Below, in pieces: positions 9,466 through 47,806 of a stretch of DNA of 64,000 nt. The stretch is from an uncultured virus (IMG/VR IMGVR_UViG_3300001041_000009) (taxonomy: Duplodnaviria > Heunggongvirae > Uroviricota > Caudoviricetes): positions 1 through 64,000 of IMG/VR virus record IMGVR_UViG_3300001041_000009. One strand, 5' to 3'. Under the pieces are notes generated by a model, which worked only from the letters and a program-made list of their open reading frames with translations, did not search any database and was not told where the DNA came from. The translations under genes and the position numbers were made by a program. Every line of letters starts with the position of its first letter. The first letter of the stretch is position 1.

Positions 9466-10179
9466 TTATCTGAAAACTATAGAGTGTTTTAACTGTTGTT
9501 TTACATATTCCATTACCTCAGCATCAGGATTGATAATATATCTAATACAATGTATATCAGTCTTAACAGCAGCCATTTGCACTTCTTTACTAGGATGGGC
9601 AAATCTTTTAATAGTAGAACAATCCTTTTGTACAGCTAATATGGCTACCTCCATACTGAATACTTTAATGAACTCCATAGCTCGTGCATCCTGTTTTACG
9701 GCAGCCATTTGGATATTTTTAGCAGGTTGTCTAATATACTTAATAGCACAACCACTTTGCTCTACAGCAGTAAGTTGAAGTTCTTTACTTGGATCTGAAA
9801 TATATCGAATGGCGTAACCATTCTGTTGAACAGCAATAGTTTGTAACTGAATAGAAGGATTTTTAATGAACTTAATAGAAGTCCCTTCTTCAAGTACAGC
9901 CGCCAATTGAACCTCTTCACATGGGTCTGGTATGTAACGAATAGCTACTCCATTCTGCTCAACTGCAGCTATCTGAACTTCTTTACATGGATTATTGATA
10001 TAACGAATAAGTCTTCCATCTGTCCGTACGACTTTTAATTGGAGATTAACACTTGGATTTTCAATGAACTGGATAACATAACCTGCTGTGGTTACGGCAG
10101 CTAGTTTAACCTCTTCACTCGGATCTTTAATGGTTAAGATGTTTAAAGGATCTTTGATTACTAATAATGTATTATTCAT
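9466..10179 (-). CDS. DUF4116-like 24-aa repeat protein
   Basis: About nine repeats; RBS AGGAGG. Confidence 0.85.
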   Translation of the reverse strand: MNNTLLVIKDPLNILTIKDPSEEVKLAAVTTAGYVIQFIENPSVNLQLKVVRTDGRLIRYINNPCKEVQIAAVEQNGVAIRYIPDPCEEVQLAAVLEEGTSIKFIKNPSIQLQTIAVQQNGYAIRYISDPSKELQLTAVEQSGCAIKYIRQPAKNIQMAAVKQDARAMEFIKVFSMEVAILAVQKDCSTIKRFAHPSKEVQMAAVKTDIHCIRYIINPDAEVMEYVKQQLKHSIVFR

Positions 10180-10211
10180 CTTTAAATTCCTCCTAAATAT
10201 TTATTTTGAAT

Positions 10212-10733
10212 TTAATATCCCCTCTTTTTTAATTCACTTCTAGCGTATTCTACTACACTAGGATCAGGTTTATCAATAACACATAACGCGAAAGGACAAT
10301 TTTTAATTGCCGCTAATTGTACATCAATACTAGGTGTTTTAATAAATCTGATTACCATACCGAAACTTTCCACAGCAGTTAATTGAACCTCTTCACTTGG
10401 ATTTCCAATACTTCTAATGATATCTGGATTTAATCGCACCATTTGTAAATCTATTGATTCTTCCATAATACCATCATAAATATCTATTTCCATATCTAAA
10501 TCAATGTATTCATCACTTAATATAATAGGACATTTTGCTGTGGATAAAAGCTCTTCAAATTCTTGCTTGGTAATAATAGTAGATGGTCTATATGATTTAT
10601 GTATAGAACTAGGTCTACTTTTATGAATATAGTAAGACTCACTCCTTTCAATTTTCGTGGCGACCAAATCTGCCAGTTCTACAACCCTATATGTTTTGAA
10701 AAATGTTATGAAACGAAATTTATTTCTATCCAT
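10212..10733 (-). CDS. protein with a unique N-terminus and C-terminal DUF4116-like repeats
   Basis: Repeats only in the last ~80 aa. Confidence 0.75.
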   Translation of the reverse strand: MDRNKFRFITFFKTYRVVELADLVATKIERSESYYIHKSRPSSIHKSYRPSTIITKQEFEELLSTAKCPIILSDEYIDLDMEIDIYDGIMEESIDLQMVRLNPDIIRSIGNPSEEVQLTAVESFGMVIRFIKTPSIDVQLAAIKNCPFALCVIDKPDPSVVEYARSELKKRGY

Positions 10734-10747
10734 TTATAAACACCCCT

Positions 10748-11299
10748 TTAATTTATTTCAGAATGATAATCCAATTTCTTTAATTCATGCCTAACATATT
10801 CTGATATGGCAGGATCTGGATTATCAATCATATTAATAGTTGAAATCTGACTCTTTACAGCAATCAACTGAATACTTTTATCAGGATCTTTGATGTACTG
10901 TATGGCTTCGGGATTTTGTCTTACAGCAAGTAATTGAACTGATCTGATTGGATCTTTGATATACTTAATAACAAGGCCATTTTCCTTAACTGCAATAAGT
11001 TGAACTTTTATGTGTGGATTGGTAATAAATTGGATAGCACATTCGTTTTGTCGTACAGCTACAATTTGAACATCCTTATCCGGGTTTTGGATATACTTAA
11101 TTACATTTCCATCTCTTCGGACCACAGTAAGTTGAACTTCTTTATCTGGATTCTTAATATACTGGATAATATAACCAGACTCCCGTGTTGCGGCTAATTG
11201 CAAATTCCTACTTGGATTTTTAACAAGTTTAATGTATAAAGGATTCTCCTTTATTAAAGATAATGTTGATCGTATCAATTGATTAGTCTCAGATGTCAT
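10748..11299 (-). CDS. DUF4116-like 24-aa repeat protein
   Basis: About six repeats. Confidence 0.85.
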   Translation of the reverse strand: MTSETNQLIRSTLSLIKENPLYIKLVKNPSRNLQLAATRESGYIIQYIKNPDKEVQLTVVRRDGNVIKYIQNPDKDVQIVAVRQNECAIQFITNPHIKVQLIAVKENGLVIKYIKDPIRSVQLLAVRQNPEAIQYIKDPDKSIQLIAVKSQISTINMIDNPDPAISEYVRHELKKLDYHSEIN

Positions 11300-11421
11300 C
11301 TCAATTCCCCCTAAATAATTTATGTATTTACTGATCTATAATATATAGTTGAATAGAATATTAAATATTACAAAAAAAATAAAGAATACGAATTAATGTA
11401 TTCTTTATTTAATGATACTAA

Positions 11422-11895
11422 TTATTTATAGTTAAACGTCCCATCAAATAGCCAACTATTTTGTTGTATAATTACCATCTGAACATCATCGTCTGGGTCT
11501 TCAATAATTTGGATAGACAATTCTTTGTTTTTCACAAACCCTAGTAATATATCCCTATTGGGATTTTTAACATGATTCATACTATATCCATTAGAGCTCA
11601 TATGTATTAAATCCAAATCTTTATGTGGATCTATAATATGATAAAAATTTGTATCGACATCCATTTCAAATATGAAGAGCTGAGTCTTATTGCTACCATC
11701 CTTAATAAACCCCACAAAGAATTTAGATCTATGGTCATACCATAGTGCTGCTAATTTTATATCACTATCAATATTGTCAGTAAATTGAATACTGACAGCA
11801 TATTTTTGAATAGCCGCCTTTTGTAAAGTAATATCCGGCTTATCAACTAATAGGATATTTATTGGGTGTATTTTTATAAGCTCCAGATCAGTCAT
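11422..11895 (-). CDS. degenerate DUF4116-like repeat protein
   Basis: MTDLELIKIHPINI N-terminus; decayed repeats. Confidence 0.7.
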   Translation of the reverse strand: MTDLELIKIHPINILLVDKPDITLQKAAIQKYAVSIQFTDNIDSDIKLAALWYDHRSKFFVGFIKDGSNKTQLFIFEMDVDTNFYHIIDPHKDLDLIHMSSNGYSMNHVKNPNRDILLGFVKNKELSIQIIEDPDDDVQMVIIQQNSWLFDGTFNYK

Positions 11896-12074
11896 TTAAC
11901 ATCACCCCATTGTTGCATAAATGTATAATCTCGTGGATCTAATTCATCACCGACCTGGACACTAAAATGGCCACATTCAATATTAATATCTTTTAGATAT
12001 ATGAATATTCCTGGGTTTTTAATACGTAGCTGGCACAAACAATCGTCAATTATTAATTTCACATCATCGTCCAC
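11892..12074 (-). CDS. hypothetical protein
   Basis: 60-aa ORF behind RBS AAGGGG and the early motif at 12106; overlaps the next start by ATGA. Confidence 0.6.
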   Translation of the reverse strand: MDDDVKLIIDDCLCQLRIKNPGIFIYLKDINIECGHFSVQVGDELDPRDYTFMQQWGDVK

Positions 12075-12120
12075 TATATTACATCCCCTTTCTATATACT
12101 AATATAATATATACTTAAAA

Positions 12121-12923
12121 AAATAAAGAATACGAATTATCATATTCTTTATTTCATAGATTACAAATTCTTTAATAGTTCTTGTTTCACGTACTCTAAT
12201 ACATCAGGATGGGGATTATTGATATATCTGATTGAGTTGATATCATGCTCAACGGAATACAATTGAACTTTTGGATGTGGATCTTTGATATTTTTAATGG
12301 TATTTGTAAAATATTCTCGTCGAAATTTCATAATCTCTTTATATTCGTCTTCAAAAGGGGATTTGAATTGATAGCTATCTTGTTTGAATGCCATTATTTG
12401 TATATGGGGTTCTGGATTTTCAATACACTGAATAGCCCGGCCCCCTCCACCATGTATAATAGCCGCTCTTTGAACAGGCATATTTGGATCTTTAATGAAG
12501 CGAATACTCATAGAATTACTATATACAGCAATTAATTGCATTTCAAAATCAGGATCTGCAATAAACTGAATTGCATCACCGTTATTTCTAACAGCACACT
12601 CTTGGACTTCACGGTTAGGGTTGATGATAAATTGTAACAATAACCCGTCTTTATTTACTGTAGCTAACTGCACATCAACATCTGGATTCTCAATAAGTAT
12701 AATGTTTAAAGGATTCTTCTGCACCATTTCTAAATCTGTTAATTTTTCCATTAATAAATTCCTCCTAAATTTTATTTCTTTACTAATATATAATATATAG
12801 TTGAATAGATTATTAGATTTAATAAAAAATAAAGAGTATGAATTATCATATTCTTTATTTCATAGATTACAAATTCTTTAATAGTTCTTGTTTTACATAC
12901 TCTAATACATCAGGATGGGGATT
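12121..12923. repeat. ~97-bp near-identical direct repeat (12121-12217 and 12827-12923): gene 3' end plus terminator
   Basis: ATTATCATATTCTTTATTTCATAGATTACAAATTCTTTAATAGTTCTTG... occurs twice, 706 bp apart. Confidence 0.85.
12161..12751 (-). CDS. DUF4116-like 24-aa repeat protein
   Basis: MEKLTDLEMVQKNPLNI...HPDVLEYVKQELLKNL. Confidence 0.85.
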   Translation of the reverse strand: MEKLTDLEMVQKNPLNIILIENPDVDVQLATVNKDGLLLQFIINPNREVQECAVRNNGDAIQFIADPDFEMQLIAVYSNSMSIRFIKDPNMPVQRAAIIHGGGGRAIQCIENPEPHIQIMAFKQDSYQFKSPFEDEYKEIMKFRREYFTNTIKNIKDPHPKVQLYSVEHDINSIRYINNPHPDVLEYVKQELLKNL

Positions 12924-13586
12924 GAATAAATGTGTAATAAAATTAATACTCTGTTTTACAGCGATCATTTGAATCTCAACTGATGGATTTTCAATACATC
13001 GAATGACATTGCCATCTTGTTGAACTGCAATAAGTTTTAATGCATCTGAAGGTTCCCCAAAGCAACTGATGGCAAATCCATTTTGTTGTAGAGCCATAAC
13101 GCAAATGTCATCATCAGGATGAACGATCCATCGAATGGCATAACCTGATTCTTGTACTGCGGCTATTTGTACATCCTTATCTGGGTTTTTGATATATTCA
13201 ATAACATCCCCATCATTACTCACCGCAGCCAACTGGACCTTTTTACTTGGATCTTTAATGAATTGAAGGGCGTATGCATTTTCTTTGACCGCAAGTAATT
13301 GTAATTCTTCACTCGGGTCTTTAATATATTGGATAGCAAATCCGTCAATACTTACTGCTGTTGATTTCACGTCCATGTCTGGATTTTTAATATATTTGAT
13401 TATATCGTCACTATCAAATTTACTACTAGATAATGCTTTTATTTGCACATCTTTATCAGGACTCTCAATAAACTGAATATTACTACCCTCATTTGTAACG
13501 ACTACCATTTGAATCTCCTTAGTTGGGTTTTTAATAAGTAAAATGTTTAAAGGATTCTTCTGCACCATTTCTAAATCAGTCATCAA
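12867..13586 (-). CDS. DUF4116-like 24-aa repeat protein
   Basis: About nine repeats; C-terminus identical to that of 12161..12751. Confidence 0.85.
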   Translation of the reverse strand: MMTDLEMVQKNPLNILLIKNPTKEIQMVVVTNEGSNIQFIESPDKDVQIKALSSSKFDSDDIIKYIKNPDMDVKSTAVSIDGFAIQYIKDPSEELQLLAVKENAYALQFIKDPSKKVQLAAVSNDGDVIEYIKNPDKDVQIAAVQESGYAIRWIVHPDDDICVMALQQNGFAISCFGEPSDALKLIAVQQDGNVIRCIENPSVEIQMIAVKQSINFITHLFNPHPDVLEYVKQELLKNL

Positions 13587-14458
13587 TTAACACTTCCTTT
13601 ATCGTCATTTAATTTATCACGAAGTTTTTGTTTTACATATTCTAATACTTCTGAGTGCGGAGTATTAATATATTTAATATTATCAATATCAATTTCAACA
13701 GCCTTCAGTTGAATACACATATCTGGATTTTCAATATATCTAATAAAACTAACATTCATGGAAATTACAACTTCTTGTATCTCTATACTTGGATCTTTAA
13801 TAAATTGAATAGTTGGCGCATCTGATATAACTGCAGCTTCCTGGATATCCTCATCGGGGTTTTTGATATATTGAATGTTACGCCCATAATATACCACAGC
13901 GATTAATTGGACCTCTTTAGTCGGTTCTTTAATAAATTTAATAGAAATTGGCCTCTTTGTAACAGCAACTAACTGAACCTCCTCACTGGGATTGTCTATA
14001 TATTTGATATTGCGACTTTTTCGTTTAACTGCCTCTAGTTGAATTGTTACATCGGGATTATTGATATATTTAAAATACTTCCCGTTAGGGGAATGATTCA
14101 ATACTTGATATTGTGCAGATAATGCTGGATTTTTTATTAAACTGATATAGGTAGGATTAATTTTGACTAGGATTTGTTGAATTTCCTCATGTGGATCTGA
14201 TATAAATTTAATATAAGCCCAAGATTGATTTATAGCGATTAACTGGACTTCAATATCTGGGTTCATAATAAATTTAATATTACGACCAGTTTCAATAACA
14301 GCAGCGCGTTGAACATCCTTATCTGGGTTTTTAATAAACCGGATATATTTTCCATTATGATTGACTGCAATTAATTGAACCTCTTTACTAGGATTCTCAA
14401 TAAACATGATATTTAAAGGATTTTTCTGCATCATTTCTAAATCTGTTAATTTTTCCAT
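13583..14458 (-). CDS. DUF4116-like 24-aa repeat protein
   Basis: About eleven repeats; N-terminus and RBS nearly identical to those of 12161..12751. Confidence 0.85.
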   Translation of the reverse strand: MEKLTDLEMMQKNPLNIMFIENPSKEVQLIAVNHNGKYIRFIKNPDKDVQRAAVIETGRNIKFIMNPDIEVQLIAINQSWAYIKFISDPHEEIQQILVKINPTYISLIKNPALSAQYQVLNHSPNGKYFKYINNPDVTIQLEAVKRKSRNIKYIDNPSEEVQLVAVTKRPISIKFIKEPTKEVQLIAVVYYGRNIQYIKNPDEDIQEAAVISDAPTIQFIKDPSIEIQEVVISMNVSFIRYIENPDMCIQLKAVEIDIDNIKYINTPHSEVLEYVKQKLRDKLNDDKGSVN

Positions 14459-14491
14459 TAATAAATTCCTCCTAATATTTTATTCTTTTAT

Positions 14492-15229
14492 TTAATGTTT
14501 CTTTAGATCAGTCACTGTAGATACGTCTAATATGAGATTGCAACTAATATGTTTATTATGATTCACATTATTAGCATTTGTAATTCTTTCCCTTTCTTTC
14601 ATTAATTCTAATAATACATATTCTGTAACTTCAGAGTCTGGATTATCAATTAATGTAAGCGATCTAAGATTTTGTTTTACAGCTATTAACTGTAAATCTT
14701 TCGATGGGTTTTTAATAAATTGGATAGCATCACCATCTTTTTCCAATGCTAATATTTGTACATCAATATCAGGGTTATTGATATATTTAATAGCACATCC
14801 ACTTTCATTAACAGCTATTAATTGCAGACCTTTATCCGGACTAGCTATAAACTTAATAGCATATCCATTTTGTTTAAGCGCTACACTTTGTATAATTCTA
14901 GTTGGTTCTTTAATATACTGAAGTGCAAGACCATGGGCTGAAACTGCAGCGCATTGGATCGGTTTACTTGGATCTATAATTTGTTCAATAGCAGTAGGAT
15001 CATACTTTACTGCTAATAACTGCACTTCAGTATCGGGATTTTTAATATACTTAAGAGCTTCACAATTTTGTCTTACAGCAGCTAATTTGATTTCATTATC
15101 TGGATCATCAATGTATCTGATCATAAGGCCATTTTTTTTGACAGTTGCTAATTGAACTTCTTTACTGGGAGGATTCTGGAGAATTAAAATATTTAGGTGA
15201 TTCATCTTCACTATTTCTAAATCTGTCAT
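14492..15229 (-). CDS. DUF4116-like 24-aa repeat protein
   Basis: About eight repeats; early motif at 15268. Confidence 0.85.
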   Translation of the reverse strand: MTDLEIVKMNHLNILILQNPPSKEVQLATVKKNGLMIRYIDDPDNEIKLAAVRQNCEALKYIKNPDTEVQLLAVKYDPTAIEQIIDPSKPIQCAAVSAHGLALQYIKEPTRIIQSVALKQNGYAIKFIASPDKGLQLIAVNESGCAIKYINNPDIDVQILALEKDGDAIQFIKNPSKDLQLIAVKQNLRSLTLIDNPDSEVTEYVLLELMKERERITNANNVNHNKHISCNLILDVSTVTDLKKH

Positions 15230-15328: not shown

Positions 15329-15340
15329 AACAATCACATA
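15329..15340 (+). promoter_or_regulatory. late-type promoter AACA-N6-TA (representative copy)
   Basis: AACA-ATCACA-TA. Same pattern before gene starts at 8346(-), 26055, 29457, 39344, 43465(-), 49310(-), 49717, 52492, 54761 and 62552(-). Matches the AR9 late consensus. Confidence 0.7.
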
Positions 15341-15374: not shown

Positions 15375-18300
15375 TTGAATAGTGTTTCTAGTACACCGCA
15401 TCTAAAATTATATAAACAGAAAACGGTTTTAGATGTAAATCCCAAAACACCCACATTACACAGCCTAGTTCTTATCAATAACAATACTTTACAATCATCT
15501 ATTAACCTTATTAATAATCCTCTAATATATCATAACAATAAATTCCATTATTATTTTATCGATCAATCATATAAAGGTAAATTATTCAATAAAACATATA
15601 GATCATTAGTTAATAAGGAGAGACAGTTAATCTATTCTGAAGTAAATTCTAAATTATCATTTATTAATACACCGACTCAGTTAGATAGTATTGATGGTAA
15701 GAATGTTTATGTGGATTTATCTAAATATAATGAGATCTTTTTTAAATATGGAGTAAAGATAAAATTTAATGTTAAGATATTAGCTTATATGGATTTAATA
15801 AAGTCTATATTGGTGGATTCTAAATATGATGAGTATAATCTTAAAACTATATGTATCGATGCCGATAGTTGGGTAAAGAATGTTAGAGCGTCAATGAAAC
15901 AAAAGATGGTATTAAATAATCCTGTATTTATTATCTATTATGCTATGCATAAGTTCTTTAAGAAGTTTCAAGAACTTGGAGATATCAATATATTAATTTA
16001 TGGTGGAAATACTATGATACGAGTCAATCCATCATTATGTGATGATAAATCTTATACGGTATTAAGAAGAGAATTAATTAAGATTGCACCTGATATGAAT
16101 ATTACCGATAACGATAAAGACCTAGATAGACAAATTGAAGTTCAAGAAATTAGAGATGATCTTCTGGGTAAATTCTTATATACATTCGGTTTTACTGGGA
16201 ATCATCCAGATGATCCTCAAGATGAAGATGAAGAAGTTTCTGAAGGAGATAACGATGAAGAATTTCAGGAAGCTATTACTTCTAGAATAGATGAGTTAGT
16301 TAATTCACCTGAAGCCAAAACCCAAACTACAAAGGAATTAAAAGATAAATTGGAGAATGTATTAGTTAATGACGAGAAGTTATTAAAGGAAATCTATACA
16401 CTTAATCAGGAAAAGAAAGTTGGTAGAACTCCTCAGTCATTAAAAAGAGATATTGAGTTAAGAGAAAATCAAAAGAATATTATGTTGGGTAAAATGACTT
16501 TAGATGAAGCCAGAAATATTAAATTAAAAGAATCTTTTATTCCGTCAATTGATGTGACGAGTAATGTTAATACTATTAACAAAAATATGACTGGAATTAA
16601 ATATCCTTTCTTTGAAAAGTCGTATAATGAAAATCTGTATCATGCTGATGTTGCCAATACATTAACATGTTTAAATGATAAGGGCCTTCCTGTATTTGTT
16701 AGAAAGATAGACGTTGAAGATAGCTCTGATGAATTAAATTACAGAGAGACTTTTTCGGTTGAACTTGAAGATTCAAATAGAGTCCGACATAAATTAAAGT
16801 TTGATATGCCTAAGTTTATTGATGATAAATTCTTATATCTAAATGGTAATAAGAAGATTATCAATAAGCAATTGTTCTCTAAACCTGTAATAAAGATTGG
16901 GCCCGATAAGGTTCAGGTTTGTAGTAACTATAAAAAAATCTTTATTATGAGATATGGCAACAAAGTTTCATCCAAAATAGAAAGATTTAAGAAAGTCATA
17001 TCTATACCCAGATCTGGTGTAATTATCAAATATGGTAATAATGCCAATAATAACTCTAAGTACAAATCTCTATTGGAATATGATGAATTATCGAAATATA
17101 TCTCATATATTAAAATATCAAATTGTGAGTTCTATTTTGATCAAAACGAAGTTCATGATTTATTAGTTAAATATAAAACTAAACTTAAAGAAGATGAGTT
17201 CTGTATTGGATTTTTCATAAATCCTCGTAGTCCTATCATTATGAACTATAGTACTCAACGTATGGGTAATTTCGATATTGTTGATTTTATAATGTCAGTA
17301 TCTTCAGGTGAAGCATTCAAAGAATTTGAAGATACTAAAGCTGGCAAAAAGTTTTCTTACACAAGAGCGTATATTATGAAAAAAAATGTACCATTAGTAT
17401 TATTATTAGGGTATGTAGAGGGTTTAACCTCAGTGCTGAAGAAAGCCAATATCAAACATCAATTTGTTGATAAACGACCAAAACTTGCTGATAATGAAAA
17501 TTCAATTCAATTTTCAGATGGGTATCTTGTATATGATGTGAATCCCTTTGAGAATTCTTTATTAATGAATGCCTTTGTCGATGTACCTACTAAAGCATTC
17601 GAATATACAGATTTTGATGATAAGGAAACGTATCTAACAATATTTGATACCATGTTTAATACTAAGATAATCGGTAACGCTTTTGATAACTTTTATGAGT
17701 TTTTAATAGATCCAATCACCAAAGAAGTTCTAGAAGACTTAAATTATCCTACAGATTTTGTAAGTTTAATGTTATTTGCCAATGCTTTATTATCTGATAA
17801 TTCATATATTAATGAAAAGGATATGAGTCTTTATAGGATTCGTTCCAATGAGGTAGTAAGTGCAATTTTATATCAAGGTATTGCTCAGCAGTATAGTAGG
17901 TATAAAGCAACTGCTAACAACAATAATCCAGTCCGTATTTCACTTCCCAGGGATTACGTAACTAAAGAATTATTAATGGGTCAGACGATTGAAGATTATT
18001 CTACACTAAATCCCATAGTTGAATTTTTCGTAGTTCCATTATGTAGTGATATATAATGCAAACTTCTTTAATTGCAGGAAACCCCTTAGTGCTTTATAAT
18101 ATAAAGATTGGACAATCTGCATCCAATATTCTATATGATAGAATAAGGTTCAACGACTAACTTATAGGGCTCAAGTGAGTGGAAGTTAATTCCTTAAACT
18201 GAAACGGGAAGCATCTCAATGGAGATGATGATATAGTCTGAACATCTATTGAAAAATAGAGAAAGATAACATCTTTACATTATCTAACAAATAATGTTAA

Positions 18301-21300
18301 CTATTTGTGGAAAAAGGTCGTGTGATATCCCAAAAGGGATTTAGTGGGATGAACGAAGATAACGCTTATACCCAAGATAAGAGAGCGTATGATGAAACTA
18401 TGTTAGGTATTATAGCAATATCAACGTCACCCGACGCAAACTGTGGTATCGTTAGACAGTTAACATTAGAACCTAATATAGTTAGTCCGAGGGGTTATAT
18501 TGACATAAAGAATGATCAATTGGATAAATTAAAAGATTCAAATTTATTTTCTCCTGCTGAATTATTATCACCATTGGGTGTAACACGGGATAAATTACTA
18601 TTGTCCCTTTATGTAGAAATACATAATAAGAATCCTTTTAATTGTCGGGGAACCCCTTAGAGCTTTATAATATAAAGATTGGGCAATCCGCAGCCAAGTC
18701 TCTATAAAAAAATTAAAGAAGTTGAACCTCTTTAATTTCAAATGGTTTATCATTAGATATATAGAATGATTTGTTATTATTATACTCATAGTCGATAAAT
18801 GTATTTTCATTACCTGTAACTACATACATATAGACATATCGATACTTTTTAAAATGTGGCTCTAATGATTCGATGTCTGTAGTAAAATATATTCTATTTT
18901 CAGAGTATAAAAATTCATCTCTACTTTTAAATGATGATTTTAAAAAATCATATTTAGTTTCGGATACATGATATAAAAGAGTACCGAGTTTAAGTTTATG
19001 TGATTTAATTGGTAGATGGTCAATACTGATATTTCCACGCCTTTCAAATATTTTGGAGATATAATGATTTAGTTTACCATATGTATTAGTTAATTGAGTA
19101 TAGAATTCTATATACTGATCGAAGTCTGTTATATTATGGATATCATTTATTATCATATCATATCAATTCAACTCCATTATTTTATTATATTCAAGTATAT
19201 GATATATAAATTCAGAGTATGATATTACTATTTTTTATAGAGAAAGGTTCAACGACTAGAGTGTAAACTCGTAGGTTTATTTATAAGCCGAAATGGAGGA
19301 CATCTAAACATGTAACTATGTAGATGAAGATATAGTCTGTCATTTATGGAAACATGAATGGTTACGGATAGTACAAGAACTGCGATGAATAATACTGTCG
19401 CATAAGTATAGTAATATATTTAAAGTCATTTCTTTAATTGACGGGAAACTCCTTAGAGCTTTATAAGATAAAGATTGGACAATCCGCAGCCAAGTCTCTT
19501 TATAAGAGGAAGGTTCAACGACTAGAGTGTGAACTCGTAGATACTTTATGTATCGAAATAAGAAACTCCTTTATATAAAAAAAATAAAGGACGAAGATAT
19601 AGTCTATTATCCTAATGAAAGTTAGGGAAGTTCGTAAGAGAACTGCATGTGCTAATAACTCATGTGCATGAAAGGGCCAGTAAACAATCGAAGCATATCA
19701 TACCTATTGTAAAATCATCACCTGTTTTAATATCTAATGGTGCGGAACAAGTTATTCAATATCATTTATCAAATGACTTCGTTATTGTGGCGAAACAAGA
19801 TGGTATTGTAGAAGAAGTTAATGATGCTAATGGTTTAACTATTATTAGATATAAAGACAATTCTATACAAGCTATTGATACTTCAACTAAAGTAGTTAAA
19901 AATGGTAAACTAAAATGCCCTTTATATGTGTGAATGTATAAAGAATATCCTTTAATTGTCGGGAAACTCCTTAGAGCTTTATATAATAAAGATTGGACAA
20001 TCCGCAGCCAAGTCTTATAGTAAAAAAAGAGAGGTGATATAAAATCACCCATATAGTATTAATAGATTATCCGTGATATGATGGCATGTCAAGTATTCTT
20101 GGGTCGGCACATAGATAATGATGAATCTGTCTGAGTTCTTTACGTAAAACCATATTATATGGATTCTCAGTCCATTGTGATGGATACATAGATTGATAAG
20201 TGGAACGCTGTAAATCAATGAACTCCTCAATATATAAATTGAAGAGATATAGATTCTTTTTTACGATGAAGGCGTCATATGCCTTAGCCTCATCACCGTT
20301 ATATTGTTTTAAGACACTAAGAAATCGATTATAGAAAAATCTGTTGGTTAACTCAATGGCATTTTCTTGAAATAATTCATCGTCTTGTGCAGTTTGAATT
20401 AAGTTCATTAAAATATCCTTTGGTGTAATCATAGTAAAACACTCCCTAATTATTTTTTACCTAAACGACTGAGAATACGAAGCAACATAAAGAATATAAT
20501 AACGTGGAACATAGTAATTATTTGGCTCCTTTATTTTATTATCTATTAATATAATATATACTTATAATCTTCTATATTACTATAAGACAGGTTCAACGAC
20601 TAGAGTGAGAACTCGTAGATATATTTATATATCGAAATAGGGATCATCTTTATAAGATGAAGATATAGTCTAGTATCCTAATTAACATTAGGGAAGTTCA
20701 TTTGAGAACTGTATAGGTTTATAATCTATATGAATATAATGGCTGGGGGTTTCTATCTATCAAATAAATTAACATGTAATCTAGTTAAAGGTCAAAAATT
20801 TAAACAAAAAGATATACTTGCATCGGATAGTAAATTCTTTACTGATAGTAAAATAACTGGTAATAGATTTAATATTGGATCATTACAAAAAGTTGCATGT
20901 TTATCAACATATTCTACCTTTGAAGATTCTGCTTTTATAACAAAGAAATTGGGTAGAGAAATGGCGGCAGACATTGTTATGGAAAAAACTGTTGCTCTAG
21001 GTTTAAATGCGAATGTTGACTATATGGTTGAGATAGGGCAGAAAGTTCAAGTTTCAGATGAACTTATCCGGTTCGAAGTTTCTTTTGATGACAACTCATT
21101 AAATAAATTTTTAGATTCTATTGGTAAGGAATTACGAGAAGATATTAAATCATTAGGGAAAACGCCTATTAAAACTAAGTATTCTGGTGAGATTGTAGAT
21201 ATCAAGATCTACACTACGGTTGAACTAGAAGAGTTAAGTCCCTCATTGAGAAAAATTGTATCTGATTATTATACTAGAATAAATAAGAAGAAAAATGTTC

Positions 21301-23483
21301 TCAATAAATATGATAAAGGGGATTCTATATATAAATGTGGCATTATGATGAACGAACCCACTAAAAAAATCGAATCTAAGGATGGTAAAGTTAAAGGTAC
21401 TGTAGTGGACCAAGGAGTTTTATTTGAATTTTATATTAAGTATAATGACGTGCTCGGGATTGGAGATTACATACAGTTTGTCTCCCTAGTATAGTGATAT
21501 ATTAGTAAAAAACTTCTTTAATTGCGGGGATATCCTTATTGCTCTATCTACTAATTAATTTTATATTAATGACTGGGAGTAATTAACCTAGTATAAGTAA
21601 TAATGATAAAGATTGGATGATCCGCAGCGAATGTGTTGTAAGAAAAATAACTAATAATATATGGCTAAACGTATATCTAATATAAAAATTAAAGAGGTGT
21701 TTCTATGAAATTATTTATAAATATTGTAACTGACCATGAGCAATGGAAAGATATAGTGTATAAAAATATCAAACCTAAGTATATGATTAGTGATCATGGT
21801 AGGGTAAAGAACATTGAACGAAATAAAATATTAGGATTTAATAACCCCGGTAATGAAAAAGGATATTGTCGTGTTGCTTTAGAGGTAGATAATAAGAAGT
21901 ACAAAAAATTTTCAGTTCAACGTTTGGTATTGATCCATTTTAATCCATTACCCAATAATATTATAGAAGAGTTAGAGGCTAATCATATAGATGGTAATAA
22001 ATTAAATAATAGGGTTGATAATTTAGAATGGGTGACTGCTAATGAAAATAAGGCACACGCCGCTAAGAATAACCTTTATGAGAATTGTGACAGACACTTT
22101 AAAGCATTCTTTACAAACGATGAAGTACATCAAATATGTAAATACTTTGTATTGGGATATAGTTTAACAAAAATAATTAATATATTTCATTGGGAAGATA
22201 GACCGAATATATTATCTATGTTATCTGAAATTAAACATAGAAAAAGTTGGAGAGCTATAAGTGATTTGTATGTATGGGATAATGATAAAATATATTATAA
22301 AACTTATAGTAAAGAAGATATTATTGAGATGAGTAATATGTTGATTCAAGGTATACGTATAAAAGATATATTACCTAAATTTGATTATGATTCAAAAAAA
22401 TTAAAAAATATGTTAAAAAAATTAAACCAGGGTAAATTATATAAAGGTATATATAAAGAATGTCTTACAACATATCGTTCAACGACTATCCTTTAGTGTT
22501 GAAATACACAATAGGAGTAGGGCCTAAATGGGTGGGTGAAATCCCCTTAAATCGAAATAAGAAGCATCTCTATCTAAGAAGTAATTACCTTATTAAGAGA
22601 TGAAGATATAGTCTAGTATCCTAAGGAAACTTAGGGAAGTTCCATATGTGAACTTATACATGCTTATGGACATGTATGAATATAAAGAAGATTGTCTATT
22701 TCACCGCTCTCAAGTCTATCATAGGGGAGGTGGTCGAGGAAGGTTTTGAACCATACGCCTTATCTCGGCCTAATGAAGAAATAAGTTCCACCATAGCACC
22801 GGGCTCAATTTTAGCGAGGATGGAATTCGTCCCATTGTATAGTGATATATAATGCAAACTTCTTTAATTGCGGGAAACTTCTTAGGGCTTTACTAATATA
22901 GATTGGACAATCCGCAGCCAATATTCTTACAAAAGAATAAGGTTCAACGACTAGAACGGTAGAGTTCTTAGATTTACAAGTGTGAATCAAAATAAGAAGC
23001 ATCTCTAATGAGATGATGAAATAGTCTGAACTTCTATTGAAAGATAGAGAAAGGATTTTATCCTTTATAATATTTAACGAATATTATTAACATTATTGGA
23101 CTCCTAGTATTCTATTAACCATGTTTGGCAATAAAGTCTTAATTGAATTAAAAAGAAAATTGCAAGAAATTTATACTAATAAACCATGGGAACCTATCAA
23201 AGAAGGTGTTGGTGTAGAATCACTTCCGAATTCAATATATAGTAAATGGGATGAAGATGGGAAAATGACATTCTATACTAGTAAAAAAATAAATTCTGGT
23301 GAAATAGTAAGTCCCTTATATGTAAATCATTGGGTAAATTATTTAGGTTTGCATATTCAATATGATCAAAATCCAAATTGTCAATTAGTCGGTGATGATT
23401 TAATAGCTGTTACTGATATTATGCCTGATGAAATATTGACAATTCCAGGTGATGTTTATGACGATATTCATCATGGTGGATAA
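15375..23483 (+). CDS. phage multisubunit RNA polymerase beta-like subunit, 7 exons: join(15375..18024,18308..18591,19367..19386,19675..19906,20742..21467,22688..22821,23099..23483), about 1476 aa, probably the virion RNAP
   Basis: The spliced frame is open (4431 nt) and restores beta motifs NPIVELEK, STSPDANCG, RDDSTRTAMASKQ, TFEDS, GIGDKIVYFTALKS and SILARMTPS. Every junction follows the exon-U / intron-G rule. Confidence 0.88.
18025..18307 (+). ncRNA. group I intron 1 in the RNAP gene (283 nt, no ORF)
   Basis: P1 GAAU/GUUC with U-G pair; core motifs TTAATTGCAGGAAAC, CAATCTGCATC, GTTCAACGACTA, GATATAGTC; terminal G. Confidence 0.88.
18592..19366 (+). ncRNA. group I intron 2 (775 nt) carrying an antisense ORF
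   Basis: P1 GGGAU/GUCCC; P10 UACUAUU pairs with exon start GAUAGUA; core motifs AATCCGCAGCC, GTTCAACGACTA, AAGATATAGTC. Confidence 0.88.
18713..19156 (-). CDS. intron-borne antisense protein, ADP-ribosyltransferase-like fold (tentative)
   Basis: LLYHVS...NRIYFT...YVYMYVVTG...KPFEIKEV parallels the Arr/ART motif order; RBS GGAG; TATATATCAT upstream. Confidence 0.55.
   Translation of the reverse strand: MIINDIHNITDFDQYIEFYTQLTNTYGKLNHYISKIFERRGNISIDHLPIKSHKLKLGTLLYHVSETKYDFLKSSFKSRDEFLYSENRIYFTTDIESLEPHFKKYRYVYMYVVTGNENTFIDYEYNNNKSFYISNDKPFEIKEVQLL
19387..19674 (+). ncRNA. group I intron 3 (288 nt, no ORF)
   Basis: P1 GCGAU/GUCGC; same core motifs; ends in G before G GCC AGT AAA. Confidence 0.88.
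19907..20741 (+). ncRNA. group I intron 4 (835 nt) carrying an antisense ORF
   Basis: P1 GGU/GCC; core motifs; stem GTCTTATAGTAA/TTACTATAAGAC encloses the insert; splicing gives KNG-AGGFY. Confidence 0.85.
20067..20432 (-). CDS. intron-borne antisense hypothetical protein
   Basis: 121 aa, RBS AGGGAG, exact early motif TATATATTAT at 20551-20560; no nuclease motif seen. Confidence 0.7.
   Translation of the reverse strand: MITPKDILMNLIQTAQDDELFQENAIELTNRFFYNRFLSVLKQYNGDEAKAYDAFIVKKNLYLFNLYIEEFIDLQRSTYQSMYPSQWTENPYNMVLRKELRQIHHYLCADPRILDMPSYHG
21468..22687 (+). ncRNA. group I intron 5 (1220 nt) with a homing endonuclease
   Basis: P1 GGAGAU/GUCUCC; core motifs; splits the GD|K motif. Confidence 0.9.
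21705..22496 (+). CDS. NUMOD4/HNH homing endonuclease
   Basis: EQWKDI...YMISDHGRVK (NUMOD4) and NHIDGNKLNNRVDNLEWVTANENKAHA (HNH_3). Confidence 0.9.
   Translation: MKLFINIVTDHEQWKDIVYKNIKPKYMISDHGRVKNIERNKILGFNNPGNEKGYCRVALEVDNKKYKKFSVQRLVLIHFNPLPNNIIEELEANHIDGNKLNNRVDNLEWVTANENKAHAAKNNLYENCDRHFKAFFTNDEVHQICKYFVLGYSLTKIINIFHWEDRPNILSMLSEIKHRKSWRAISDLYVWDNDKIYYKTYSKEDIIEMSNMLIQGIRIKDILPKFDYDSKKLKNMLKKLNQGKLYKGIYKECLTTYRSTTIL
22822..23098 (+). ncRNA. group I intron 6 (277 nt, no ORF)
   Basis: P1 GGAU/GUCC; close sequence relative of intron 1; splicing gives ARM-TPS. Confidence 0.88.
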
Positions 23484-43481: not shown

Positions 43482-46400
43482 CTACAATAGATCAATAATA
43501 ATATCGTCTAAACTAATTGTTAGATATTCAGGCACATAATTTTGTCTATCAATCTTAGACAATGATGTTATATCGGGAGTTCGGTTCTCTATTATTTGAA
43601 CCGAAGAATCGTAATCATTAAGATTACCAAACCTCATATATTCAACGGTGGAAAAATTTGTTTCTACACTAGTAATTAAATTGGATATATAAATCCCATT
43701 TGAACCTAAAGCATTTATACTTTCAATAAATTTCTTGATGAATACTTTTAATGATAGAATTAAATCATCGACATCTGAACCAACGCTAGGTTTAACTCTA
43801 ATATATATTCTAGTATTGACATTATCTAGTTGAACCCCTAGATCACCTGCAATAAAATTATTTGATCTCCCATAAGTATTATAAAATTTCATATCTATAC
43901 CATAATTATTAGTGACTTTAGATAATGCATTTTGCATATATTCATACTGAATCAATATAGTTTTCATAAAAGAATTATACTTAATTGGATCTTTCATCAT
44001 AGGTGCTGATACAAATGGAACTGCACTGATGGTAACATCATACCCATCAACATTATTAGCGGATGTGAAGTTTACCATACTTCTTAAGATATTAAGAGGA
44101 CTTATGAAATTAACTTTTTTATCTACTGTTGAATATTTATTTGTTAAAGTATAAGGTTGTAATTCAGCAATATGATCATATATATGGGGTATTTTATATA
44201 GATTTCCCTCTTCGTCAAGTTCACTATACTTATAGAAAGCATAAACATTTAATTTACAATTATACATAGGTATTAAAGTATTGACTAAAATAATCCCATC
44301 GATAGTATTATTAATATTCATAACTTGCATATATTGGTCGAAAGTCATGTAATCAGTAGTACTCAAAGTTGCTTCAAATGTATATATATTCGTTAATTCA
44401 TCGAAATCTGTCATTATTGTATCTAAATAGCAAATCTCCACTCCATTATCTTCCACCATTATTTTTATCTTTAATATTCCTAAGTCTGTAATAATATTGG
44501 CAACTTTAGTTGCCATTACTTCACCGTCATCTAAGGTTGGAGTTAATGCGACTGTAATCTTGTATACATCCTCACCTGCAATTGCATTCCTATATATATT
44601 GATGTTATTACATATGAATTGTACTATGGAATCTGAATTCACATACTCGTAATCTAGAGACAATTTATCATCAATTGAATTAATATAGTAACCAATAATC
44701 CCTGGAGATTTACTAACTGTAACTAGAAATAAATTTGTGAATATATAGTCATCAGTTAATACACCAATATCATCCTTAATAGTCAGGATAGGAATTAACT
44801 CAACGGCATTGGTATCTACCTTATCTGTCGTGTTAGTAGTATTCGTTAGATACCACAATAACTTAACCGTTTAAGGTTCTTTAAACCGTCCGACCAACGG
44901 CGAAATCTTTATTTACGTTAGTTAATAAAGATCCTTTAAACGACTTATAAATATTAATAGCCGCATTATTATCTCTGTCATCTATATGCCCGCATATTGG
45001 ACAATTAAAGATTCTTTGAGATAACTTTAACTTAGTTTTAAGTTTATGGTTACATTCAGAGCATGTGTTAGTAGTATTAGGTAACGCTAAAATATATTCG
45101 CTACCGTAAAAGTAGCATTTATATTTTAACACTTGTGTAAACGTAAAGGCACCAACTCTATGAATACCCCTATTAATACGCTTAATACCATCAGATTCTG
45201 TAAGTAATTCTTTAAAACTAAACTCATCGACTACTACGTTTCTATAAGTCTTAGCTAAGAAGGTTGAAACCTTCTGAATATAATCCATTCTGATATTCAC
45301 TATTTTAATATAAATATCATTAAGCTTGGTTCTCGCTTTTATATAGTTTTTCGATGGATCGTACTTATCATACTTCTTTTTAGAAACTATCGTTGAAAGT
45401 TTATCGGTTTTCTTCTCTAGTTTCTTAATAATTCCCTTTGGGAATTTAGGATTTATGATATCTTTTCCATCAAAACAAACTACCGGATTAAGTATTCCTA
45501 GATCTACACCCACTATGTTTTTCGTATGAGTATGCTTTGGGACATCTAACTCATATGTAAATGATACATAATATTTAAAATTCTTCATACTAATAGTCAT
45601 TGTTTTTATTTCATATTGATATAAGAAACTTATATCTTCAAAAGTTTTCAATGACATATGACCATATTCTCTATTAATAATAAAAGAGAATTTGTTTTTG
45701 TCAATAATTTTAACGTTACCTTTATTCTTATTGTATATTCGGAATGATCCATTACCATGGATCTTTCTTTTAAAATGAAGTTTACACCGTTTCTTATTTT
45801 TAATATCTTTAAAGAACTTGTTGACAGTTATATTAAAATCACTAGCCACTTCATTCTTTACAGTTTTATTATATTCTTTAGTCCATTCAAATCCCGGTTC
45901 TTTTTCTTTCTTAGAATATATATGAGTAATAAAATCAAATTTATCGAAGAACTTCTTTAAATCCTTATCAATAATATTACCATTGAATTCTAGGATCTTA
46001 TTAAAATACTCTAAGGTATTATTATATATAAATCGTCTATATCCAAAGCATTTATTTAAATATACTTCTTGTTCTTTAGTCGGTCGTATTCTTGTTTTAA
46101 AAGTCTTAATCATTTTTTTTATTCACCTCCTTTCTTATATTATTTGTTATACCCATAATAATATTTTATTAGGAATGAATTAGTAAGACTTACGGTTAAG
46201 TTATTTCTCTAAGTTTCCTTAAAGCACAGACTATATCTTCACCCATTATAACGTTGTTATACTGGGGCTACCCATTTCGATTTAAGGGATTCTCACCCAC
46301 TCACTTGAGCCCTACGAACTTTACGTTCTAGTCGTTGAACCTAAATCTATAAATAGATCTTTGGCTGCAGATTGTCCAATCTTAAACTTTGTTTATATTT

Positions 46401-47806
46401 ATATCAGTTTAAGCTATAAGGAGTTTCCCGCAATTAAAGTAGTTGCAATTGCATATTACTATGCAACGAGACTCATATTAGAATCTAAAAAGATGTCCTG
46501 GTTTTAAAACTAGTAACTTATTTTGAATATATATGGTATCGAATTCACTTGGTATAATAATTGCATGTAATGTGTTAGTGTGATAAATATCATTATTCTC
46601 ATCTTTCAGTAACGCAAATGATGAAAATAATCTTTCAAATGCGTCATCTCTTTTTTTTATAAATAATATCTCATTACCATATCTATATTTAAAATTAGTG
46701 AAATATACTTGTAAATCATTCTCATTAGTATATGAATCAACAGTAGAGAATTTTTCAACTACAATCGATCTTAATTCTTCAATGTCTAAATAATCAGACC
46801 CACCTACACTATCAGACTGTGGTATAGCAAATATGACAATACCATTATTATACGTATATATTTCAGATTTAGGAATAACATTTACTTCAGTACCTGTATA
46901 TGCAGGAAAATTACCAGCACTTCCAGTCGTTGTATACAGGTCTATTTTAAATTCCGAATTAAATTTTGGTTGAAAGTATTTACTGAGTGTTGAGAAACTG
47001 ATAACAATTTCATTTTGATTTTTAACGGTATAATAACAGAATGGAGTATCTATAGCCGGTGTATTGACAACTCTTTTTTTCAGTTGAATAAAATCAGATG
47101 AATCTGGTGACTTATAATATATTTCAAAATTTGCTAATTGATCTACAAAATTAAGTGAGAATGTAGGAAAGTTAATTTTATCATTAGTGAATACTTGTTC
47201 ACTTATAGATGTTTTACTTAATTGTCTAACCTTAACAAATAAACCTAAATATTTATTCCCAGTATAATTTATTCTTTTAGCTTTTAATATATACGGACCA
47301 TTTTCATCACTCAATGAATTTGTAAAATCTAATTTATATTGAGCTGTAAAAATATAATCTGTCTTATATGGTTTGGCTGTTATAACTATATTATAATCCA
47401 ACATAAATCGTTTATCTTCAATGTCTATTACTAGATCGGAATCTAATATAAACTCATAGAAAGAACCTTTATTTATCCCCAAATTAACTATATCTTTCTC
47501 ATTGATAAATAACATCATATACGTACTTGCAGGCGTTGCAAATAAATTATCTAATTGAAATAATGATGCATAATTATAAATTGATTCTGGTAATATAGCT
47601 TTATTAGGAAACATTTCTTTCAAGAATATTGAAACTGCATTAAATGTATCTTCAGTCGTATTGGATATCATTTCTGTACTATAACCAAACATTCCAATAT
47701 TTAATTGATTAATATCAACCATATCAAAATATTTAGGAGCTATGTCATTTATAGCTAATTCTTTTATTGAATAATTACTACTGTAATCTTTTTGTAGTAT
47801 AGTCAT
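43482..47806 (-). CDS. virion structural (baseplate wedge-like) protein, 2 exons: complement(join(43482..44824,46483..47806)), 888 aa
   Basis: Removing intron 44825..46482 gives an open frame ...KPGHLFR-Y-KVDTNAVELIP; YTTTGSAGN and GGSD motifs resemble baseplate wedge proteins. Confidence 0.75.
44825..46482 (-). mobile_element. group I intron 7 (1658 nt) carrying tnpB in a P9 loop; IStron-like but without a transposase
   Basis: P1 AGAU/GUCU; core motifs TTAATTGCGGGAAAC, CAATCTGCAGCC, GTTCAACGACTA, AAGATATAGTC; 14-bp stem AATAACTTAACCGT/ACGGTTAAGTTATT around tnpB; 3' hairpin with CTAACGA loop then TAACACGACAG, as in introns 1 and 6. Confidence 0.85.
44881..46113 (-). CDS. tnpB: TnpB-family RNA-guided endonuclease
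   Basis: KTRIRPTKEQ..FGYRRFIYN HTH; RuvC-I VGVDLG; zinc finger CSEC/CPIC; RuvC-III DRDNNAAINI; RBS AAGGAGGTG. Confidence 0.92.
   Translation of the reverse strand: MIKTFKTRIRPTKEQEVYLNKCFGYRRFIYNNTLEYFNKILEFNGNIIDKDLKKFFDKFDFITHIYSKKEKEPGFEWTKEYNKTVKNEVASDFNITVNKFFKDIKNKKRCKLHFKRKIHGNGSFRIYNKNKGNVKIIDKNKFSFIINREYGHMSLKTFEDISFLYQYEIKTMTISMKNFKYYVSFTYELDVPKHTHTKNIVGVDLGILNPVVCFDGKDIINPKFPKGIIKKLEKKTDKLSTIVSKKKYDKYDPSKNYIKARTKLNDIYIKIVNIRMDYIQKVSTFLAKTYRNVVVDEFSFKELLTESDGIKRINRGIHRVGAFTFTQVLKYKCYFYGSEYILALPNTTNTCSECNHKLKTKLKLSQRIFNCPICGHIDDRDNNAAINIYKSFKGSLLTNVNKDFAVGRTV

Follow-up and report, generated by a model that had tools for sequence, protein, structure and literature searches.

Antisense gene cassettes in group I introns of a predicted virion RNA polymerase beta gene from an AR9-like phage

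The locus and its host gene

The window (the whole 64 kb stretch of DNA that was analysed) is the first part of a virus record of 118,479 nt, referred to below as the contig. It carries on its plus strand a gene of seven exons and six group I introns (I1 to I6), which are arranged as follows.

15329..15340, plus strand: late-promoter-like match to the AR9 consensus AACA-(6N)-TA (PMC5312081, available sections), upstream of the gene; weak, as the motif is short and frequent
15375..18024, plus strand: exon 1 of the putative virion RNAP beta gene; TTG start, GGAG about 10 nt upstream
18025..18307, plus strand: group I intron I1; no ORF, phase 1, Rfam 85 bits
18308..18591, plus strand: exon 2; median 65% identity to 79 full-length homologues
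18592..19366, plus strand: group I intron I2; phase 0, P6 loop (Q to R) enlarged by an insert of 551 nt
19367..19386, plus strand: exon 3, a 20-nt micro-exon; median 86% identity over its codons
19387..19674, plus strand: group I intron I3; no ORF, phase 2, Rfam 83 bits
19675..19906, plus strand: exon 4; from PHROG and homologue comparison
19907..20741, plus strand: group I intron I4; phase 0, P6 loop (Q to R) enlarged by an insert of 581 nt
20742..21467, plus strand: exon 5; from PHROG and homologue comparison
21468..22687, plus strand: group I intron I5; phase 0, P6 loop occupied by a nuclease gene in sense
21705..22496, plus strand: predicted NUMOD4-HNH homing endonuclease ORF in I5, 263 aa; Pfam HNH_3 and NUMOD4 above cut-off, end overlapping the R core motif
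22688..22821, plus strand: exon 6; from PHROG and homologue comparison
22822..23098, plus strand: group I intron I6; no ORF, phase 2, Rfam 93 bits
23099..23483, plus strand: exon 7; the last ca. 96 codons form a SET-like tail that is missing from most homologues

The AACA-(6N)-TA motif was found 93 times on the plus strand of the contig. Five exon-bearing ORFs matched PHROG 3148, 14872 and 38251. Alignment to the AR9 virion RNAP, a check named in the original prediction, gave 35% identity over 1336 aligned residues between the spliced beta sequence and its AR9 orthologue, the record of which is labelled as a virion subunit. These matches support assignment of the gene to the large beta subunit of an AR9/phiKZ-type virion RNAP and, by orthology, the subunit would be packaged in the virion. 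Databases contain an 893-aa fragment of this protein and not the 1476-aa form; a polymerase subunit of that size is overlooked by annotation.

A second assembly (L044, a 272.5-kb contig) contains a copy that is identical over the gene, and the runs in which the phage was found carry the label groundwater metagenome. Unique pieces of the locus showed 0 differences from the DNA contigs of three runs, the source perhaps among them. Unitigs stop at the repeated core motifs of the introns, so that the I4 cassette is joined to its own 5′ half on the evidence of the assemblers and of relatives.

The C-terminal tail of ca. 96 aa (window 23193–23480, plus strand) is absent from most homologues. Homologous tails in L053 and L054 (34% identical) scored above the Pfam SET cut-off; the tail encoded in the window gave no Pfam SET match. 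It appears to be a SET-like domain fused to the virion RNAP subunit.

Intron anatomy and reading frame

The cores of six group I introns were recognised by their motifs at 18.0–23.1 kb. From I1 to I6 the introns span 5,074 nt, and the exons measure 2650, 284, 20, 232, 726, 134 and 385 nt. P, Q, R and S core motifs with a P3 of 6–7 bp, a terminal U of the 5′ exon paired with G in the P1 hairpin, and a terminal G at the 3′ splice site were each present in 6/6 introns, as expected from the original description of six related ribozymes within ca. 5.1 kb; the cores are 55–78% identical. Removal of all six introns gave the single 1476-aa frame that had been predicted, with 0 internal stops, and retention of any one intron stopped the protein at 893–1358 aa. 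The junction motifs NP..E|L, RD|D, AM|, NG|A, GD|K and RM| were recovered as claimed. A scan with a group I covariance model, proposed as a check, divided the set: I1, I3 and I6 passed the RF00028 (Rfam) cut-off, and I2, I4 and I5, which carry long inserts, were matched as halves below it.

Candidate junctions were scored against three intron-less relatives and compared with 79 full-length proteins among 119 listed homologues. Within 6 aa of junctions I1 to I6, indels were found in 0, 1, 0, 0, 9 and 11 of the 79 proteins, respectively. The expected preference of introns for conserved sites held only moderately, as the junction windows fell at the 54th–88th conservation percentile of 10-aa windows. 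Judged from this anatomy, the beta RNA is very probably spliced six times.

Alternative junctions for I1 and I4 that scored a few points higher on three distant references were rejected, as they lacked the U/G ends. For I2, another 5′ site with the same score was likewise discarded, because the chosen site forms P1 and gives the homologue consensus.

The original prediction had exons 3 and 6 missed by ORF callers; exon 3 is indeed invisible, but exon 6 lies within a reported 58-aa ORF. It had also assigned a nuclease gene to one intron only. The ORF in I5 is, by its HNH and NUMOD4 domains, a predicted HNH homing endonuclease, but I2 and I4 are not empty: both contain antisense ORFs. The ORF-less introns of the contig have 21–24 nt between Q and R, compared with 551 nt in I2 and 581 nt in I4.

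Intron density in AR9 and other relatives

The orthologous gene of phage AR9 (g189; NC_031039 gp188) is joined from six pieces in its record, with an HNH gene annotated inside. Rfam finds five introns there, which were mapped here to 2.9 kb and which leave an exon of 11 nt. In both genes, several group I introns lie close together in the same C-terminal part, and both have a micro-exon. An intron of the late AR9 gene also holds an HNH gene served by an early promoter of its own; this early promoter and sense-strand HNH gene within the beta-gene intron are proven (PMC5312081, available sections). The two genes differ in intron number (five against six), and none of the AR9 positions is shared with I1–I6. 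They differ too in cargo, as the intronic gene of AR9 is a sense-strand HNH gene, whereas two introns of the present gene hold antisense, apparently non-nuclease units with terminators.

PBS1 and Goe21 showed at most three HSP breaks in the beta gene. At least one intron was found in the beta gene of 18/54 related loci (duplicates included, one being this phage); the highest number outside this phage was four, partly at the same sites. Short database homologues mostly (37/40) end in four clusters, although some of these ends may be contig ends; three clusters match I1, I2 and I3 and one matches an AR9 site. In L007, an intron at the I3 site follows an 8-nt exon (read by eye). The contig as a whole contains ca. 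16 group I introns, counted by R motifs; a mean of 18.5 per genome is given for another clade in the available part of PMC12880540. The claim that six introns represent a very high density is accordingly weak: the density is not new, the gene follows the known AR9 pattern, and six introns are only marginally unusual.

Early-promoter motif and terminators

The early-promoter consensus of AR9 has been mapped experimentally, and TATATATTAT matches it (PMC5312081, available sections). On the contig, 18/26 TATATATTAT sites were followed by a ribosome site and an ORF of at least 50 aa, as against 244/3000 random positions and 4/37 sites of three one-mismatch variants. On this evidence TATATATTAT is the predicted early-promoter motif of this phage. 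A scan for sigma-70 promoters gave 61 matches, about as many as the 64.5 expected by chance. In I4, and in 5 of the 10 other cassettes compared, the TATATTAT core and the R element are 42 nt apart. All nine cassettes that were folded (I2, I4 and seven of relatives) end in a hairpin with a U tract; z-scores of single terminators are modest (−1.5 to −4.3).

An 8-nt promoter core also occurs on the minus strand in the AT-rich P5 hairpins of I1 (18103) and I2 (18674), with no gene following; these cores are probably a coincidence of palindromic loops.

The antisense unit of intron 2

The P6 loop of I2 contains the following features.

18702..18739, minus strand: terminator-like hairpin and U tract; −11.7 kcal mol−1, z −1.8 alone
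18713..19156, minus strand: ORF of the antisense cargo, 147 aa, its fold probably that of an ADP-ribosyltransferase; from homologues and model
19199..19208, minus strand: early-promoter-like motif with one mismatch (TATATATCAT); from the promoter-motif scan

Six homologues of 157–187 aa align along the length of the ORF, after two long low-complexity matches were dropped; a search for the genomic surroundings of these homologues returned none. In 7/7 sequences of the family H63, Y90, D122 and E124 are invariant, with the His in the first strand, the Tyr in the second motif and the acidic residues in a D-x-E arrangement. We take these four residues to be catalytic from family motifs rather than from a structural overlay. 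The protein model has a pLDDT of 84. Its best fold match reached Z 7.1 (the bar of the tool being 8) with an rmsd of 4.5 over 93 aligned residues, and Foldseek gave no match at E≤0.001. Nearly all of the 50 listed structural neighbours are presumably of ADP-ribosyltransferase fold. An Atlas feature score of 0.93 linked the ORF to Arr clusters, through only 136 shared features.

With Tpt1/KptA, Arr, ART-PolyVal and relatives, which have an H-Y-E-like triad, the I2 protein shares the predicted fold and the invariant His, Tyr and Glu; it differs in having no sequence-family match. An ADP-ribosyltransferase fold is judged likely, and the cargo is probably an NAD-using enzyme of ADP-ribosyltransferase type that would act as an accessory early protein.

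None of three one-mismatch promoter sites like that of I2 passed the gene test (ribosome site and ORF), and the virion RNAP of AR9 is reported to be sensitive to deviations in early promoters (PMC5312081, available sections). Because of the promoter mismatch, a ribosome site distant from the start, and a different, shorter N-terminus in one database record (variant P0001), the I2 unit may be silent or decaying. With these same three points taken into account, expression of the I2 copy is still judged somewhat probable.

The antisense unit of intron 4

The P6 loop of I4 contains a second unit.

20022..20050, minus strand: intrinsic-terminator-like hairpin and U tract; from folding
20067..20432, minus strand: antisense cargo ORF, 121 aa, predicted four-helix protein of no named family; from homologues, model and selection
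20450..20512, minus strand: hydrophobic ORF of 20 codons, placed after the promoter and before the 121-aa ORF; strong ribosome site, read from the sequence
20551..20560, minus strand: perfect early-promoter motif TATATATTAT; AR9 early consensus (PMC5312081, available sections)

The I4 promoter failed the automated gene test because the first ORF has only 20 codons. A database homologue of the 121-aa protein is 63% identical. Further homologues (38–45% identity) are antisense cargo behind the same promoter motif: they occupy the I4 site in L022/L052, L051 and L023/L067, the I2 site in L021/L047, and an intron of a DNA polymerase gene in L073/L074. A homologue of 33% identity belongs to a long antisense gene array beside the 3′ half of an I2-site intron in L055. 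Values of dN/dS were 0.16–0.45 in the 7 unsaturated of 10 pairs, which indicates that the I4 family is under purifying selection at the protein level.

The protein was modelled as a four-helix bundle (pLDDT 88). The fold search returned generic helical bundles (best Z 8.7, for YqeY, under the bar of the tool for helical proteins), nucleases were not prominent among the matches listed, and no Pfam or PHROG family was matched. The cargo would be a small helical protein-binding factor, again an accessory early protein.

For neither cargo ORF did Pfam and PHROGs reveal an HNH, GIY-YIG, LAGLIDADG, PD-(D/E)xK or EDxHD family at E≤0.1. Sequence searches of the PDB gave nothing significant, tblastn against annotated phages no useful match, and PADLOC nothing; a second copy of either ORF is absent from the contig. 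Existing annotation does not reveal these small reverse ORFs as intron cargo.

The P6 loop as an exchangeable slot

P6 is empty in I1, I3 and I6, filled by a sense-strand HNH gene in I5 and by an antisense unit in I2 and I4. In relatives, the introns at the I2 site are empty in L045, L023 and L051 and carry the helical unit in L021; those at the I4 site are empty in L045, HNH-filled in L021 and filled by the helical unit in L022, L023 and L051. An unrelated 125-aa antisense ORF occupies the I4 site of L055, in which three complete introns carry unrelated antisense ORFs. Because introns at the same site are empty, HNH-filled or cassette-filled in different relatives, P6 behaves as a dispensable, exchangeable slot.

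The cores of the I2-site introns of L021 (with cargo) and L051 (empty) are 92% identical. In a tree of the cores the I2-site introns cluster with a support of 100, although the exon bases included favour grouping by site; deep nodes are poorly supported. Throughout the catalogued beta-gene loci with introns, HNH-like ORFs are in sense and other cargo is antisense. A scan for a backward promoter beside an R motif, made with no chance control and with many near-duplicate loci, gave 35 matches at 33 viral loci; 31 of the 35 have a downstream S motif and 16 an ORF of at least 40 aa within 90 nt. Terminase introns are among these matches, as are several unrelated families of cargo; the loops of 42–63 nt among them are probably AT-rich hairpins that arose by chance.

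In L085, L086, L094, L097–L100 and L108, P6 of a terminase-gene intron holds an antisense unit of 364 nt that has a promoter motif and a terminator but no ORF. In L055 (1–5970), more than 5.8 kb of antisense genes precede the 3′ half of the I2-site intron, and no 5′ half or exon is in reach; the array may lie within one giant intron or next to a split intron, the beta gene then being trans-spliced.

Known intron-encoded genes

Phage introns of the T4 td/I-TevI type have an ORF looped out of the core (PMC3984707, available sections), a class into which I5 fits. The cargo of I2 and I4 differs from it in lying on the opposite strand and in belonging to no Pfam or PHROG nuclease family. With I-DsqI of nuclear rDNA introns the units share a gene on the strand opposite the ribozyme (PMC9548176, available sections); that system is eukaryotic and has a proven His-Cys nuclease, whereas the present units belong to a phage, lie behind early promoters of phage type and carry cargo of apparently non-nuclease nature. 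The ORFs of bacterial and phage group I introns are given as homing endonucleases or maturases in the review PMC3984707, in the available sections of which the term antisense is absent. Antisense cassettes are likewise not described in those of PMC10914365, and the terms antisense and opposite are absent from those of PMC11878797; PMC12350094, PMC12908238, PMC7598289 and PMC7824862 provide, in the parts available, general background only. A literature search, with most subscription papers outside its scope, gave no description of phage group I introns with antisense cassettes whose cargo is not a nuclease. More unusual than the number of introns is the presence of antisense cassettes in P6 of I2 and I4.

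Proposed mechanism and alternatives

We consider it likely that the locus belongs to an AR9-like jumbo phage whose late virion beta gene is interrupted by six self-splicing introns, with P6 as a slot for antisense early units. The late pre-mRNA would be restored by the six group I ribozymes, for which the anatomy and the restored frame were found. Late timing would follow AR9, in which all virion RNAP subunits are late (PMC5312081, available sections). Injected virion RNAP would transcribe the antisense units early and stop within the loop, each unit being apparently self-contained with early promoter, ribosome site, ORF and terminator. The anatomy suggests that the backward orientation is favoured because the terminator of a unit placed in sense would cut the late transcript inside the intron; placed backwards, the unit would yield a short antisense RNA confined to a loop that splicing removes. 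The Q and R motifs on either side of the loop are near-identical, and recombination there may exchange cassettes between introns; cassettes may also be carried along as an intron homes, with HNH genes of the I5 type as a possible driving force of the spread. The cargo would be accessory early proteins.

A wider reading is put forward only tentatively. The introns of AR9-like jumbo phages might be mobile docking sites that hold accessory early genes for host takeover or counter-defence (an ADP-ribosyltransferase and a helical factor in this phage, arrays of several kilobases in others) in essential late genes and are spread by homing, so that the intron would benefit the phage and not be a pure parasite. 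If true, swapping antisense early-gene units would be a further route by which phages store and exchange accessory genes with the essential gene unharmed, and such a benefit, which is testable, could help to explain the tolerance of many introns in these genomes.

The I4-family protein could instead be an unrecognised homing endonuclease or maturase that is kept for serving the intron. All complete I4-family contexts retrieved are group I P6 loops, at three different sites, and antisense homing-endonuclease genes occur in eukaryotic rDNA introns (PMC9548176, available sections). The all-helical model and the lack of a Pfam or PHROG family argue otherwise, as do the intact introns at the same sites that have no gene of this family (L045, L051), the filling of the same slot by unrelated proteins, and the homologue within the multi-gene array of L055; this explanation is considered unlikely. 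An effect at the RNA level is rated lower still. Early promoters that face the late gene, and the ORF-less 364-nt unit with terminator in the terminase intron (8/33 loci), would suit antisense RNA or convergent transcription that restrains the beta transcript or its splicing early, the proteins being secondary, yet the terminators would stop the RNA inside the loop, short of the core, and the I4 family shows purifying selection at the protein level.

Least probable is that the six introns represent nothing beyond the usual biology of AR9-type phages, with inserts that are dead filler or contain frames open by chance. The five introns of the AR9 orthologue and the imperfect I2 promoter are in keeping with it; against it, the I2 and I4 ORFs have protein homologues, confident folds, promoters and terminators, and dN/dS in the I4 family is below 0.5.

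Other elements in the same and related genomes

Outside the beta gene, window 44881–46492 (minus strand) contains an IStron-like element, in which a group I intron (Rfam 79 bits) is followed by an IS605 TnpB gene. The ORFs on its flanks (43482–44858 and 46478–47806) may be one split gene. Contig 116962–117420 holds an intron nearly identical to that of this element, together with the beginning of a similar ORF, and contig 80805–82150 a second TnpB-like ORF with a 3′ intron remnant. Roughly nine further group I introns were found in other genes, at contig 71.8–74.2, 84.4–85.0, 100.5–101.4 and 115.2–117.3 kb; three of them are packed into 0.9 kb at 100.5 kb, and one, at 115.2 kb, bears an HNH gene. 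Upstream of the beta gene, window 9466–15229 (minus strand) is a run of small genes, mostly for paralogous repeat proteins (the one scanned matches DUF4116), several of which stand behind their own early-promoter motif.

Among the relatives, adjacent beta exons of L032 (5184–6773) are separated by two intron cores and an HNH ORF; the introns may be nested, or a further micro-exon may be present. The other viral contigs L011/L012 and L013/L014 carry five and four group I introns, respectively, within ca. 2 kb, in genes other than this beta gene.
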